Position numbers and translations under genes: made by a program. The notes below the pieces were generated by a model. It worked only from the letters and a program-made list of their open reading frames with translations, made no database searches and was not told where the DNA came from. From a virus (lineage: Duplodnaviria; Caudoviricetes), in IMG/VR virus record IMGVR_UViG_3300010352_001202: a stretch of 64,000 nt of DNA, one strand, 5' to 3'. This document shows, piece by piece, positions 14,153 through 21,044 of the stretch (position 1 is the first letter of the stretch; each line of letters opens with the position of its first letter).

Positions 14153-14812
14153 ATGGATTACAATCATCATTATACCAGACTAATAGAAAGAGCAAAAACA
14201 CGGACTCCAGATCCTGCTATTCATTATGAAAAACACCATATTATTCCGCGGTGTCTCAATGGTACAAATGATAAATCAAATCTAGTGAAACTAACACCCG
14301 AAGAGCACTATGTTGCACATCAACTATTGGTAAAAATATTTCCAGGAAATCGCGGATTAGTTCATGCTGCCACCATGTTATGTGTCGATGGTTCGGGTCA
14401 TAGATCAAATAATAAAATCTACGGATGGCTTAGAAAACTCGATGCTGAAACAAAAAGTAAATCGCAAAGGGGTAGAAAACTAGGACCAAATAAAAAGAAA
14501 GGCCGACCTGGTCATCCTTCGACCTTAAAGGGAACAAAACGAGGCCATCCATGGAACTACGGATTAAAAACAGGACCGAACGGTAAGGCCGGAATAAGTA
14601 CAGGACCAAATAAAAAGAAGGGTCGGCCCGGTGCTGCCTCTGCAAGGAAGGGAAAGAAATATGGTCATAATGCTAAACTCGGAAAACCAGATGGTCCACA
14701 AGAAAAGATTATATGCCCGTACTGTGGTAAGGAAGGCGGAAAAGGCGGAATGAAAAGATATCATTTTGTTAACTGTGAGTTCTACAAGCCTATTGACATC
14801 ACAACGGTGTAA
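14153..14812 (+). CDS. HNH homing endonuclease (MobE-like N-terminus)
   Basis: Y..LIERAK, EKHHIIPRC..G...SNLV.LT.EEH..AH.LL; repeated GPNKKKGRPG tail. Confidence 0.9.
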   Translation: MDYNHHYTRLIERAKTRTPDPAIHYEKHHIIPRCLNGTNDKSNLVKLTPEEHYVAHQLLVKIFPGNRGLVHAATMLCVDGSGHRSNNKIYGWLRKLDAETKSKSQRGRKLGPNKKKGRPGHPSTLKGTKRGHPWNYGLKTGPNGKAGISTGPNKKKGRPGAASARKGKKYGHNAKLGKPDGPQEKIICPYCGKEGGKGGMKRYHFVNCEFYKPIDITTV

Positions 14813-14903
14813 TCGTATACTAGCTACGCCGTGTGAAGGACAGTGCGAGCGGAGGCAATATCAATAAGACCTCCCCCGTTCTTGTCTCGGTAAATAGACG
14901 ACT

Positions 14904-15186
14904 GCCCCGATGGTGAAATCAGGTAGACACAAGGGACTTAGACAAATTTGAGTGCCTGGTTGGAAACAATCAGAGTAGAACCCGTCAAATTCGGTGAACG
15001 CTGTAAAATGCCAATACCGAGCCAAGCCCAAAAGGGAAGGTGTAGAGACTAGACGGCGGGAACCTAAAGCGAAAGCTATGGTTAAGGTATAGTCCAGACC
15101 ACAAACAGAAATGGTAACGAAAGTTATAGTGGTAAGAAAATCCCTCGGCTTCGGCCATGCCGGTTCGATTCCGGCTCGGGGCACCA
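14904..15186 (+). tRNA. trnL: tRNA-Leu(TAA), intron-containing (exons 14904-14939 and 15137-15186)
   Basis: GCCCCGA/TCGGGGC acceptor, AGGGA/TCCCT anticodon stem, spliced loop CTTAAAA, long variable arm, CCA. Confidence 0.92.
14940..15136 (+). ncRNA. group I (IC3) self-splicing intron, 197 nt
   Basis: P AAATTCGGTGAA, Q ACCGAGCCAAG, R GTGTAGAGACTAGACGG, S AAGGTATAGTCC; P1 U.G at splice site; terminal G. Confidence 0.92.
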
Positions 15187-16471: not shown

Positions 16472-16861
16472 ATGAAAATGTACATCCCCGAAATCAGTGA
16501 CGAGATTCGCCTCCTATCCGATTGGACATTTGGTCTTGTCAACGAAACTCGCAATGCGACACTGATGGAGAAGATTGGTGACAACCGCAGTACACAGTAT
16601 GCCTACAGGGATCCGTATACTACCGTTCCCTGCACTATTCCGGCCGGTGCCGTATTGAAGATTGATCGCATCTATGTTCGCAAAGGCAAGGGCGATTTCA
16701 GTTCCATTACTTTCCTGTGGAAAGGTGAAAGTATAGATCCCAGGGTGGTACAGCGTGATCCACAATACTGGGGCGAAACCATAGTCAAGATTCCACGCAA
16801 GCCCGTCCGCTTTTGGGCCAAGCTGGATGATGTGAACAATATAGAGTTCGAAAGAGCGTGA
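16472..16861 (+). CDS. conserved phage hypothetical protein
   Basis: IDRIYVRKG...RFW.KL.D.N. Confidence 0.7.
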   Translation: MKMYIPEISDEIRLLSDWTFGLVNETRNATLMEKIGDNRSTQYAYRDPYTTVPCTIPAGAVLKIDRIYVRKGKGDFSSITFLWKGESIDPRVVQRDPQYWGETIVKIPRKPVRFWAKLDDVNNIEFERA

Positions 16862-17086
16862 CTGAAGACGATACCTTCCGCATCCTTGCACGACCTTCCT
16901 ATGAGGAAATGATAGGTCTACACCGGGAATGGCAAATCGGGTGGCGCAGAACTCATTCCAATAGCAGTACATATCCCTCAACACAGAATATTGTATTTGC
17001 AGAGCACTATGGATGGACGTGGCTGGAGTACCAAAAACAAATACAATACCATAGACTGCATCCATAGGCACTGTTATACTAACCCC

Positions 17087-17530
17087 ATGGGCCAATATAT
17101 CAGACATGCTGTAGTACCAATGGAAGAGATCGTTGAAAAGATCTTATTCTTTTGGGGTGCGCCGCGCCGTACCAAAGCTCTGTTATCAACTGGCCACGAG
17201 GTCGGCGTTGTCAGCCTCCGTATGCGGACATTTGGTAGGGCCGCATCAAGCAAGTCGGGTATCCACTGCAAAGCATGTGGGCTAAAGGCAACGCATTTTG
17301 CAATCGAAGGATTTACCGGCAGCCAGATTCCTTCTGTGCATGCTAATCTGTACGGCATGAAGCACAATGTGGAAGTGCTATTCACACAAGATCATGTCCT
17401 TCCTGTATCGCGCGGTGGTAAGGATAGCCTGAATAACTCACAGGTAATGTGCCAACCCTGCAACAGCAGAAAGGGTTCGCGCAGCGATAGGAAGTTCAAG
17501 GCCGAAATGCGAGGAGAAAAGAAATGCTGA
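17087..17530 (+). CDS. HNH endonuclease
   Basis: CKACG...DHVLPVSRGG...NSQVMCQPCNSRKG; leaderless start. Confidence 0.85.
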   Translation: MGQYIRHAVVPMEEIVEKILFFWGAPRRTKALLSTGHEVGVVSLRMRTFGRAASSKSGIHCKACGLKATHFAIEGFTGSQIPSVHANLYGMKHNVEVLFTQDHVLPVSRGGKDSLNNSQVMCQPCNSRKGSRSDRKFKAEMRGEKKC

Positions 17531-17782
17531 TGACAAAATACAAGTTCCTTACATTGCACGACGAGCGTGGCAATCATCTCGTTGTGACTCGGTTGGAGGA
17601 CGGTGCGCAAAAGTATTTCTTCCTCGCCGGAGAAGATAGGACGCAAGGCCTTACCGAATTTATGAAATCAATGACGGACGAGTTGATCGAGGGCTACTTC
17701 CCGAAGCCAGGAAAGCGTGGTGGCAGTCCGGTTGACAATTGGGCCTTTCTCGGGCATAATCCCGGGAGACAGCTCGCAGAGC

Positions 17783-18208
17783 AGCGGGGAAGGTGCTACC
17801 CAATCTCCCGAAAGCAGACAAAAGATTTCCGAGGGTGTAAGAAAATATTATCAAAATAGAACAGAAGATCAGAGACAAACCAATAGACAAAATAGATCAA
17901 AATCTGCAAAATTAGCAAATAGACAAAGAACTATAACAGACGAAGAAAGATTAGCAGCATCTATTCGTGCTAAAAAACAACGACGAGAAGAAGACGAATC
18001 ACAAAGACAAGCAAGAATAGATAAGCAAAAGAAGTCGAGAAAAGAAAGAACACAGGAACAAAAAGAAGAAACCAATAGGAAAAGAGCAGAATCGTTTCTA
18101 AAAAAGACACCCGAACAGATAGCAGAGACTAATAGAAAAAGAAACGAATCGCATAGGCTGAGACGGCTAAGAATAGCGGGAACAACTGATGATGGTACAC
18201 CGCAATAA
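17783..18208 (+). pseudogene. orphan basic DNA-binding tail of a GIY-YIG-type endonuclease
   Basis: Begins at GEG...SPESRQKIS, the junction seen in the intact GIY-YIG genes here; no nuclease domain or plausible start. Confidence 0.5.
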
Positions 18209-18319
18209 AAGTACCGAAACGGGCGGATTGTAGAGAGTAGAAGAGCTTTCCAATCCGCAAGGAAGATCGACTCCAGTGGGATGGGCACTGTCGATTCTCT
18301 TCCTTGTGGCCCGTATTGT
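18176..18319 (+). ncRNA. type I hammerhead ribozyme
   Basis: Stem I ACAA/TTGT, CTGATGA 18186-92, stem II GGTAC/GTACC, GAAA, stem III CGGGC/GCCCG, GUA cleavage triplet 18313-15; loop II CCGC can pair with upstream GCGG. Confidence 0.75.
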
Positions 18320-18768
18320 GCTGGCTGATTAAGATCCTTGAGGATCTGAAGGTCACCAAGCCCTCTGGAGGGTGGGTACCGGATATGGACCCCGATAGAT
18401 ACTTCCATGGCATTAGAGTATAGTAAAAATAGAGTGAAGTAAAAATAAAGTGTGAAAGAAATCAATCTAACCCGAGTCGTCGGCCTGAGGAGATATATCC
18501 AAAGTACGCTAACTTTTCTAGATAGGGCCTAAAAACCCGGCCACTTTCATCGTGCAGGCGTGGGCGCCACAAGGTGAAATGCACTTATATTTTAATTTTA
18601 GATTATAAATTGTGAATGAGTCTCGGAGAACACTGGAGAAAAGGTAGCGAGAGCTACTGAGTACATTGAAGGTGCTGAGGCGGAGAGTGTCGCTGGAAAC
18701 GGTGATATCAATAAGTTCTATTGGAGCCTACCAAGTCTAGCACGGCTAGCGGGTGGGCTTTTCTCTTT
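18316..18768 (+). ncRNA. large structured non-coding RNA candidate
   Basis: No convincing ORF; many helices, GAGA/GAAA tetraloops, G.U pairs on + strand, intrinsic terminator 18725-18768. Confidence 0.6.
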
Positions 18769-18815
18769 GTCCAAACTCTATTTGACATTGCTGCTGCCCG
18801 CGCTATAATAAGCAC

Positions 18816-19133
18816 ATGGGACACAGAACAATAGTCATCTTCAACAACGACATTACCGATCAATGGGGCGAAGACCCGGAGCTTGGTAAGAAGATTCAGC
18901 GAGCATCGCCACATGCAATGGGTGGCAAGATGGCTGACTTCGGGACTGGTCGTGTAGTAGAATGCTGCCATGCAGATCAACAAACGCTGGCGGTGATTGA
19001 TAGCACCAGTATGTTTCCGATTGTGCATTCTAGCTGGCACCGCGATCAAACCTGGCAGACACGCGATCTGGGACTGCTGAGATTGGCAGCCGAGAAAATG
19101 GGTTACAGACTTGTAAAGAAAGCAACAAAATGA
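18816..19133 (+). CDS. hypothetical protein
   Basis: Leaderless behind TTGACA/TATAAT. Confidence 0.7.
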   Translation: MGHRTIVIFNNDITDQWGEDPELGKKIQRASPHAMGGKMADFGTGRVVECCHADQQTLAVIDSTSMFPIVHSSWHRDQTWQTRDLGLLRLAAEKMGYRLVKKATK

Positions 19134-19576
19134 AATGCAACATCACGGCTAACACCAACGGCAAGGGCCGCTGGACGGATGAGGAACGCATGGTCCTCAT
19201 CACCAAGCTGAAGATTGGCTACAACAGCCAGGAGTATTACCCGGAGGAACCGTTCAATGGTGAGCTGCGTGCTTACTTTGATCCAAGCGGCTTCGTCCCG
19301 GGTTCCTGGTATGTTCCGGGCCACGGTTTGATCTACACGGACAAGCAGTGGATGAAAGAGTTCAAGAAGGGCTTGCGTGAGCTCGGCCTGAGCATCAAGG
19401 CTGTGCAGGATGTCTGTTACAGCGAACAAGGAATGCAGGGCAACGATTATGTCTCGTTGGACATTGGTCCTGTGTTTTATGCAAGCTGGAAACGCCTCCT
19501 GAAGAAGCAGGAACAACCGATTGAACTTTCTCTTCCGTGGAAACCACAACTTAGTAACCTTAAGGAACCAGTATGA
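19130..19576 (+). CDS. conserved phage hypothetical protein
   Basis: GLIYTD...YSEQGMQG..YVS. Confidence 0.75.
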   Translation: MKCNITANTNGKGRWTDEERMVLITKLKIGYNSQEYYPEEPFNGELRAYFDPSGFVPGSWYVPGHGLIYTDKQWMKEFKKGLRELGLSIKAVQDVCYSEQGMQGNDYVSLDIGPVFYASWKRLLKKQEQPIELSLPWKPQLSNLKEPV

Positions 19577-20170: not shown

Positions 20171-20300
20171 ATTATTATTTAGTTTGCAACCAGATTGACA
20201 TCTAACTCGCTATAACACATAATACAACTTCCCAGGACGGTCTGTGATAGGCACAGTGGGGTCCAACAAAGTAACTAATGCCATGAAAGGCACACATAAA

Positions 20301-21044
20301 ATGAAGAAAATCCTTACTGCTCTTGCACTTGCAGCGTGCACCTTTTCGGCGTCTGCCGGGCTGGTGTTGGGCGCACCCGGTCTTGCTGATCAAGGTACTT
20401 TGACCTTGAATAATTTTGCCAATGGTGGCCACAGTGGCACTATCCAAGCAAACCCGTTTCCTGCCGAATCGGTTGGTGTCGGTGGTATGAACACTACGTT
20501 CGCCGGCTCGCTTGCGAGTGACGGTTCGTACACTGTCTACTGCGTCGAAGCATATTCCCCAGCATATTGGGGCGCAGGCGGTGCGCATGTTTACGACTTC
20601 GGTGCTGCTGCTGTCAGTGCTCAGAGCATCCTGATCAGCAAGCTGTTCACTGTCAACGGCGGCGTGACTGCTTCGAGTAACGACAACTCCGCTGGCCTGC
20701 AGCTGGCTATCTGGGAAGTTTTGTATGACTCGAATCCGGTGGACGTGACCTCCGGCCAGTTTCATGCATCCGTTACTTCCGGCGCCACTGCACGGGCCAA
20801 CTACCTGCTGTCGCAAGTCAACTCGGTCGGTGCCAACTACATGGTATCGTTGTTCACTGATAACAACCTGGAGAAGCCGGGCCGACAAGACTTCATCACC
20901 GTGACCGCAGGGACGTTCGGCTGTAATGAAAATGATTGTGGCGGCACCGTTCCCGAACCAGGCAGCCTAGCACTTGCTGGCATGGGCCTTATGGGCGCAG
21001 GCGTGGTTGGTCGGCGTCGCAAGCTGAAGGTTGTTTCCGAGTAA
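20301..21044 (+). CDS. PEP-CTERM sorting-domain protein with putative Cys-Gln thioester domain
   Basis: Signal peptide; VYCVE and LQLAIWE; C-terminal VPEPGSLAL-TM-RRRK. Confidence 0.9.
   Translation: MKKILTALALAACTFSASAGLVLGAPGLADQGTLTLNNFANGGHSGTIQANPFPAESVGVGGMNTTFAGSLASDGSYTVYCVEAYSPAYWGAGGAHVYDFGAAAVSAQSILISKLFTVNGGVTASSNDNSAGLQLAIWEVLYDSNPVDVTSGQFHASVTSGATARANYLLSQVNSVGANYMVSLFTDNNLEKPGRQDFITVTAGTFGCNENDCGGTVPEPGSLALAGMGLMGAGVVGRRRKLKVVSE

Follow-up and report, generated by a model that had tools for sequence, protein, structure and literature searches.

The locus described in this article lies within a stretch of viral DNA of 64,000 nucleotides (nt) (Duplodnaviria; Caudoviricetes), which at its full length we call the window and which is part of a 152,693-base-pair (bp) IMG/VR virus record (IMGVR_UViG_3300010352_001202; completeness estimate 39%). 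It consists of a motif with the features of a type I hammerhead ribozyme and of a predicted structured RNA of about 450 nt that follows it, with an HNH endonuclease gene and further open reading frames (ORFs) on the upstream side and a promoter and the next gene on the downstream side (Table 1). The neighbourhood contains many small genes, transfer RNAs (tRNAs) and homing-type endonucleases. The protein cluster of the HNH endonuclease is also present on a contig of up to 388 kb, and the source is therefore taken to be an uncultivated jumbo phage. A first-pass annotation of the window had proposed a large structured phage non-coding RNA (ncRNA) released by the hammerhead, and it is this proposal that the present analysis follows up.

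The hammerhead motif and its homologues

The core that the first-pass annotation had read as that of a complete type I hammerhead is confirmed: all of its elements are present in the sequence between 18182 and 18319, and they are conserved and covary in homologues. The A15.1-U16.1 pair corresponds to A18219-U18314 and nucleotide 17 is A18315, i.e., a nucleotide other than G; these are invariant in the 12 homologues described below. The G10.1-C11.1 pair is present as well, but U18193 is inserted after A9. The predicted type I hammerhead is complete, this U being its one additional nucleotide, and cleavage is expected between A18315 and U18316. The branched insert that had been placed in stem III at a length of ~85 nt measures 84 nt, and in the minimum free energy fold of 18170-18330, which is a three-way junction, it forms two hairpins; the folding energy of this segment is -58.3 kcal/mol, compared with -43.8 +/- 4.0 kcal/mol for shuffled sequences (z = -3.7). 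A descriptor that combines the core, GAAA and U-H with a 4-bp stem I and with 4 bp or more in each of stems II and III has a single match in the window (128 kb over both strands) and none in 300 dinucleotide-preserving shuffles.

Relatives of the locus were collected from the contigs that carry homologues of the HNH protein and by motif scans of IMG/VR and JGI metagenomes; they are designated below by numbers preceded by L. The collection holds 12 distinct hammerheads homologous to the window copy, all of them in metagenomic jumbo-phage contigs. The blastn searches with the locus and with L009 gave no match among GenBank phages, from which we conclude that the locus is not carried by any cultured phage. 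Two further searches returned mainly noise: a scan of viral contigs with ACAACTGANGA...GAAACGGG gave 20 loci, apparently chance matches in unrelated sequence except for one unrelated hammerhead (L022), and a relaxed 3'-domain motif gave mostly chance matches in metagenomes, the real ones being L078 and L116 only.

All three stems change in sequence among the homologues with their pairing preserved. Stem II differs in nearly every copy (GGUAC/GUACC, GUCUU/AAGAC, GUUC/GAAC, GUCG/CGGC, GACGU/ACGUC and others; in L155 and L157 a CCC/GGG stem is flanked by U...U). Stem I, which has a range of 4-6 bp in the family, reads ACACAA/UUGUGU in relatives and CACUA/UAGUG in L158, where an A-U pair has changed to U-A, and it is 94.8% paired over 13 sequences. 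The first pairs of stem III change jointly (CGGG/CCCG, UGGU/ACCA, CGUC/GACG, CUGU/AUGG, CAGA/UCUG, CAGG/CCUG), with 93.6% of the stem paired and both sides changed in five of the six pairs; the stretch from A15.1 to U16.1 takes up 60-117 nt in relatives and its insert is partly conserved. Nucleotide N7 is U or C. Even the catalytic core varies in a concerted manner: GUGAUCA replaces CUGAUGA in L011 (2082-2228, minus strand) and L116 (3489-3634, minus strand), the rest being intact, which amounts to a natural joint swap of C3-G8 for G3-C8 at bases that pair in the active fold. Both covariation of positions 3 and 8 and an extra nucleotide after A9 are known from natural hammerheads (PMC4209133).

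The same three-way junction is obtained by RNAalifold from a plain MAFFT alignment. We also built a covariance model from the 12 hammerheads and refitted the same sequences to it. In the model-fitted alignment 89.4% of cells are paired and double changes occur in 10 of 16 pairs; none of 500 shuffles was as good, and partners slid by 1-3 columns were only 31-52% paired. The model finds one copy per locus and a single one in the window. For the hammerhead and the 3' RNA of the window, the scores against the family models (84.5 and 132.3 bits) fall within the family range. We conclude that the hammerhead motif is real and under selection; its self-cleavage is predicted.

A further contact was considered outside the three stems. 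A loop II pseudoknot, CCGC/GCGG, had been suggested for the window, and a pairing of the CCGC in loop II with a GCGG upstream is possible. The extra U and a long loop II (ACCGCAAUAAAA in the window and ACCGUUAAAA in L158) set these two copies apart as a subtype, and L158 retains the pairing as CCGU/GCGG; the subtype consists of these two sequences only. The other homologues have a GNRA-like loop II, for which no partner was identified. We tentatively interpret the contact as a pseudoknot between loop II and the 5' flank. Such pseudoknots were shown to be necessary for fast cleavage in ~40% of natural hammerheads (PMC3088659).

Table 1. Positions of the features at the locus in the window and of the tRNA-shaped RNAs in related loci (aa, amino acids)
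Feature	Position	Strand	Remarks
HNH endonuclease gene	16991-17530		0.65 kb 5' of the RNA
Last conserved ORF before the hammerhead	17524-17859		
ORF rich in K/R/E/Q, 163 aa, no internal Met	17717-18208	+	reads through the A-rich spacer
A-rich, T-poor spacer from last conserved ORF to hammerhead	17860-18181	+	AT skew 0.5-0.66; aligned with L007 and L006
GCGG 5' of stem I	18177-18180	+	candidate partner of loop II CCGC, 18200-18203
Stem I, 5' strand ACAA	18182-18185	+	partner 18316-18319
Catalytic core C3-A9, CUGAUGA	18186-18192	+	
Extra U between A9 and G10.1	18193	+	common to window and L158
Stem II, GGUAC/GUACC	18194-18198/18211-18215	+	encloses 12-nt loop II, ACCGCAAUAAAA
G12, A13, A14 and A15.1 (GAAA)	18216-18219	+	invariant in 12 of 12 homologues
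Stem III, CGGGC/GCCCG	18220-18224/18309-18313	+	encloses branched insert with two hairpins, 84 nt
U16.1 and A17	18314-18315	+	UA invariant in 12 of 12 homologues; predicted cut 18315/18316
Stem I, 3' strand UUGU	18316-18319	+	sole part of the ribozyme expected on the 3' product
Predicted 3' cleavage product, structured non-coding RNA, ~450 nt	18316-18768 (end approximate)	+	
Local hairpin CCGA-GUCG-UCGG	18474-18485	+	covaries: CCGA/UCGG, GCGA/UCGC (L155)
Conserved motif GGAGAUAUAUCCAAAG	18489-18504	+	from alignment
GGG...CCC hairpin, then CCACU	18526-18547	+	CCACU identical in all 10 sequences
Invariant motif GAGAACACUGGAG, helix H1 and hairpin H2	18626-18674	+	
H1, CACU/GGUG	18631-18634/18671-18674	+	100% paired; three compensatory pairs in L155
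H2, GUAGC-GAGA-GCUAC, inside H1	18644-18657	+	hairpin in every homologue, sequence differs
GGAGA, 5' strand of closing helix	18682-18686	+	pairs with terminator tail UCUCU, 18762-18766
Hairpins H3 (GAAA loop) and H4	18688-18723	+	
Intrinsic terminator AGCCUACC...GGGUGGGCU	18725-18768	+	inner CUAGC hairpin, tail UUUUCUCUUU
Sigma-70 consensus promoter (TTGACA, 16-nt spacer, TATAAT) and ATG of next gene	18782-18818	+	downstream boundary of the RNA gene
tRNA-shaped RNA, L006	5871-5988		
tRNA-shaped RNA, L007	1476-1592		
tRNA-shaped RNA, L008	2124-2242		
tRNA-shaped RNA, L009	3168-3288		
tRNA-shaped RNA, L155	5786-5911		
tRNA-shaped RNA, L157	4627-4752		
tRNA-shaped RNA, L013	1968-2087	-	
tRNA-shaped RNA, L014	1525-1646	-	
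tRNA-shaped RNA, L116	3798-3920	-	

The RNA downstream of the predicted cut

The sequence that follows the predicted cut is conserved in 10 further loci (L006-L009, L011, L013, L014, L078, L116 and L155), with nhmmer E-values from 1e-41 to 1e-121. The earlier statement that it contains no convincing ORF is borne out by the comparison: no ORF is conserved, the longest ones (18-60 aa) are found at non-homologous places, and the substitutions in the RNA have no codon (three-base) periodicity. The invariant blocks include GGAGAUAUAUCCAAA, CCACU, GAGAACACUGGAG, GAAGGUGC and GGGCUUUUCUCU, the last of which is kept in all homologues and has a promoter downstream of it.

The 3'-terminal block has the same layout in every homologue, namely CACU/GGUG around a variable hairpin and then a junction of two hairpins and the terminator hairpin, closed by GGAGA/UCUCU. 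On a sequence-only MAFFT alignment this block is 82% paired with double changes in 17 of 29 pairs, none of 500 shuffles being as good and slid controls giving 45-58%; on the model-refitted alignment it is 89% paired with double changes in 18 of 29 pairs (shuffles 0 of 500, slid controls 43-52%). The closing helix is 100% paired after the refit and 96% on the plain MAFFT alignment, and its compensatory changes include GAAGA/UCUUU (L013 and L014) and GGAAGA/UCUUCU (L008). All eight pairs of H3 have changed on both sides, with pairing in 87.5% of cells; the case for H4, 65% paired, is weaker. Covariation, whose absence the first-pass annotation would have taken as a point against its own proposal, was thus found in stems I-III and in the 3'-terminal block.

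The individual structures that had been proposed for this RNA fared unequally. The terminator expected near 18768 is present as a conserved hairpin and U-run, the GAGA and GAAA tetraloops are borne by the hairpin GUAGC-GAGA-GCUAC and by a GAAA-capped hairpin, and the hairpin AGAUCC/GGAUCU can be read in the sequence; so can CCCTC/GAGGG in a shorter form but not as written, which leaves a 2-nt loop. Two long-range pairings found no support: CCGAG/CTCGG competes with the covarying local hairpin CCGA-GUCG-UCGG (GCGA/UCGC in L155), by which it is better explained, and the pairing of the A/U-rich AAAATAAAGTG with CACTTATATTTT does not hold at the matching place in L007. A third candidate pair, AATCTAA/TTAGATT, falls within a poorly aligned A/U-rich stretch, and the structure of the middle of the RNA is partly resolved. 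Judged by its pattern of conservation, the downstream sequence is a structured, non-coding RNA, predicted to end at the terminator.

Gene setting and RNA modules in related loci

The gene order tRNA-Leu(UAA), HNH, RNA locus and L7/L12-like gene recurs across the relatives. The HNH protein encoded upstream of the RNA has ~147 aa and consists of an HNH domain alone, without RuvC. Its homologues lie at a variable distance of 1.3-3.8 kb upstream of the RNA in relatives, and in L009 none was found within 3.3 kb upstream. We judge the HNH gene to be a syntenic neighbour only and not its partner. Genes on the flanks of the RNA are complete; for example, the phrog_7147 alignment covers positions 1-104 of 105. 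A search of viral contigs with the last conserved ORF before the hammerhead gave no relatives.

The ~320-nt A-rich spacer of the window occupies the site where the relatives have upstream RNA modules. The K/R/E-rich ORF that reads through it ends with a TAA stop (18206-18208) in loop II of the hammerhead, and its translation has no Pfam or PHROG match; a NUMOD-like identity was entertained for it and is given no support by Pfam. This ORF is perhaps a by-product of the T-poor composition and not a gene. No convincing promoter was found between the protein-coding ORFs and the RNA in the window or in L007, the TTGACA at 17732 being located within a conserved codon stretch. Because the RNA in these two loci stands behind ORFs without a promoter of its own, a processing step would be needed to free it. 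On the other side of the RNA, the ATG of the next gene follows only 6 nt past the -10 box with no Shine-Dalgarno sequence, and the same promoter/ATG layout follows the RNA in L006 (6717-6754), L009 and L011. Such spacing suggests leaderless messenger RNAs (mRNAs) in this phage lineage; L007 has instead a normal leader with AGGAG.

Most relatives have the hammerhead inside a gene-free mosaic of RNA modules that extends over 0.4-1.1 kb. Therein lies one part of the first-pass proposal that has to be amended: the RNA is conserved, non-coding and folded, as proposed, but the hammerhead in relatives is not simply its head. The modules upstream of the hammerhead include a T-arm-like hairpin module, a tRNA-shaped domain (module B), a CCACCCAAG hairpin element and others, and consensus promoters precede the first module in L006 and L157. 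The tRNA-shaped RNA, conserved and ~105 nt in length, resembles the tRNA-like domain of transfer-messenger RNA (tmRNA) and is composed of an acceptor stem, a GG region that is left unpaired, a long helix that covaries, a conserved CCUGCAAGCAUG apex (apex palindrome GCAUGC) and a T arm with GGUUCAAGACC, GAAUGGGGAUG being a further motif; neither ARAGORN nor Rfam calls it. A minimal form of the locus is seen in L158 (7169-7425), where one upstream module and the hammerhead are followed directly by a tRNA-shaped domain (acceptor GUUCCUG/CGGGAAC, T arm UUCGG-UUCGAGA-CCGAA) and a U-run, the 3' domain being absent; the predicted cut lies 4 nt 5' of the acceptor stem. The window carries only the hammerhead and the 3' domain, whereas nearly every relative also has modules A-E and the tRNA-shaped domain, and the upstream modules of the relatives were not found elsewhere in the 152-kb genome fragment (a record that is ~39% complete). 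It follows from the comparison of these arrangements that the putative ribozyme is the constant element and that the modules around it vary.

Several further observations concern the same regions. Small hydrophobic ORFs are wedged between modules in L157 (4406-4471, 21 aa, preceded by AAGGAG) and L007 (1208-1483). The window contains at 34156-34405 an RNA that is promoter-driven and tRNA-ended, with the acceptor GUGCUGG/CCAGCAC and the T arm GGGG-UUCGAAU-CCCU; no resemblance to module B was seen in it. At 14153-15117 the window has a gene for an HNH homing endonuclease (phrog_655) and after it a group I intron of 188 nt (Rfam, 58 bits), and the syntenic site in relatives has an uninterrupted tRNA-Leu(UAA). 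In L009 (981-2363) and L013 (3106-4503, minus strand) a protein of 460 aa that contains the ATP-dependent ligase domain PF01068 is encoded upstream of the RNA locus; its gene was rejected as a partner of the RNA, which it was not seen to adjoin in L006, L155, L157 and L158. Finally, the window encodes at 20244-21044 a phage protein that combines a thioester domain with a PEP-CTERM sorting signal (Pfam E-values 1.6e-4 and 7e-7).

Comparison with known systems and interpretation

The type I hammerheads of bacteria and phages (RF00163; PMC3088659) have the same core CUGANGA...GAAA...UH, the same three-stem junction with an open stem I and a phage setting, as well as bracing by pseudoknots, for which the loop II/flank contact is the candidate here. 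The present family differs from them in its branched stem III insert of 60-117 nt, its stem I of 4-6 bp, the extra U of the window copy and the G3-C8 core of two relatives. The minimal hammerheads of Penelope-like elements (PMC4209133) come from eukaryotic retroelements and have U3-A8 and minimal stems, in contrast to the G3-C8 cores and the phage ncRNA locus described here. By every testable property of sequence and structure except detection by Rfam, the predicted ribozyme belongs to the hammerhead class, within which these features make it unusual. Our literature search found no paper on hammerheads in jumbo phages, and according to a review the roles of nearly all genomic hammerheads of bacteria and phages remain undefined (PMC6765202).

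The other obvious comparison is with the large ornate RNAs GOLLD (RF01998) and ROOL (RF03087), which like the present one are encoded by phages and prophages near tRNA genes (PMC5737381). No match to them was found in sequence or structure, and the locus is built as a mosaic of modules, not as a single fixed fold. Rfam, which the first-pass annotation had recommended as a check, returned no GOLLD or ROOL match to the window at E <= 10, nor to L006 or L007. Neither GOLLD nor ROOL is known to be processed by a self-cleaving ribozyme of its own. As no Rfam family matches it, GOLLD and ROOL included, the predicted 3' RNA is an uncatalogued structured family. Module B of the relatives shares with the tRNA-like domain of tmRNA and with two-piece tmRNAs the acceptor stem, a D region that contains GG and is unpaired, a long helix and the T arm GGUUCAAGACC; unlike tmRNA it lacks both a tag reading frame and G3-U70, and the window does not contain it.

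We consider it likely, with a probability of about three in four, that the locus encodes a ribozyme-processed, end-protected phage ncRNA of a new family, where cleavage, the chemistry of the ends and stability are deduced from sequence and predicted structure. The proposed course of events is as follows. A type I hammerhead at the 3' end of the HNH-operon transcript would fold into stems I-III during transcription, the loop II/5'-flank pseudoknot probably bracing this subtype, and would cut itself after A18315. Given the type I arrangement, the body of the ribozyme would remain on the upstream fragment, which would end in a 2',3'-cyclic phosphate, and the downstream fragment would start with a 5'-OH and retain from the ribozyme only UUGU (4-6 nt across the family). 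The product of interest would be this downstream fragment, a multi-helix RNA with its 3' U-tail paired back onto the conserved GGAGA. A 5'-OH end is a poor substrate for RNases that sense a 5'-monophosphate; with such a start and the paired-back tail both ends would be shielded, which should give a stable stand-alone ncRNA.

Several observations weigh against this interpretation. First, Rfam 15 detects no hammerhead in the window at the gathering score or even at E <= 10, and at E <= 1 it detects none in L006 and L007. The long stem III insert is probably the reason why the Rfam models miss the ribozyme; the very large inserts together with the G3-C8 cores would explain more generally why these ribozymes escape standard models. 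Second, the combination of the extra U and the 4-bp stem I could slow or abolish cleavage in the window, and the tertiary contact is a tentative one seen in two sequences. Third, the family comprises ~12 distinct sequences, all metagenomic and of narrow phylogeny, by which the apparent covariation is inflated. Fourth, the fold of the whole 460-nt RNA is only modestly more stable than those of shuffled sequences (z = -1.6). Fifth, the window copy has no upstream modules and could for that reason be a decaying remnant.

The alternative that survives best, improbable as we find it, is that the hammerhead mainly controls the upstream mRNA, in which case severing of the terminator hairpin would destabilise or tune the HNH operon and the 450 nt would be a structured 3' untranslated region (UTR) without a role of its own. 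The ribozyme does stand directly after protein-coding genes with no promoter between them in the window and L007, and hammerheads of bacteria and phages are usually suggested to process polycistronic or 3'-UTR transcripts (PMC6765202). However, there are invariant motifs and covarying helices within the 3' domain itself, this domain is kept in L006 and L157 where promoter-driven RNA modules and not genes are found upstream, and the type I topology gives a clean end to the downstream piece. We give somewhat less credence still to the possibility that the window copy is a decaying remnant, in which the extra U and the short stem I have perhaps put an end to cutting and from which the modules that gave the locus its function are gone. 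The atypical A-rich filler in place of these modules is what one might expect of such a remnant, but no catalytic nucleotide is missing, every invariant motif of the 3' domain is preserved, the extra-U subtype recurs in the otherwise well-formed L158, and the model scores of the window lie inside the family range. That the HNH gene and the RNA form a single mobile or RNA-guided unit (a homing cassette, a remnant of a group I or II intron, or an IscB/HEARO-like nuclease with its guide) is very unlikely in spite of the HNH gene 0.65 kb upstream and the second HNH gene with a group I intron 3 kb away, because IscB-type effectors combine RuvC and HNH in about 400-500 aa, the distance between HNH gene and RNA varies and the gene was not found within 3.3 kb upstream of the RNA in L009, synteny among the relatives extends over the entire region and nothing in it points to an insertion, Rfam has no match to an intron (16500-19500) or to HEARO, and the flanking genes are complete with a promoter between the RNA and the next gene.

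We return, therefore, to a ribozyme-matured ncRNA and to what it might do. The same ribozyme precedes different modules in relatives, including the tRNA-shaped domain 4 nt beyond the predicted cut in L158, and its general role would therefore be to make the 5' end of the next RNA module; in other words, we infer that the hammerhead serves more generally as a separator of RNA cassettes. As for the job of the released RNA, our favoured guess is a protein-binding or a translation- or tRNA-related scaffold that is produced early in infection. The neighbouring tRNAs, the tRNA-shaped RNAs and the L12-like gene hint loosely at translation or tRNA biology, a hint to which we attach low weight. A bolder extension, possible in our view rather than probable, is that the 3' domain and the tRNA-shaped and other modules represent a new class of ribozyme-matured, end-protected large jumbo-phage RNAs, made early from sigma-70-type promoters and having a biochemical job of their own (e.g., to bind or decoy a host factor for translation, tRNA processing or defence), with the hammerhead as the general cassette separator of phage 'RNA islands', a processing logic so far undescribed for double-stranded DNA phages.

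The position of the predicted ribozyme, exactly where a structured RNA needs its 5' end and in a topology that would leave almost no scar, offers a readable job for a phage hammerhead, and its reuse before different modules makes the notion of a ribozyme as separator of RNA cassettes directly testable. The natural G3-C8 cores and the very large stem III inserts should be of interest to ribozyme specialists. With the RNA that would be released, jumbo phages, whose ncRNAs have barely been studied, gain a well-supported new family of structured RNAs.

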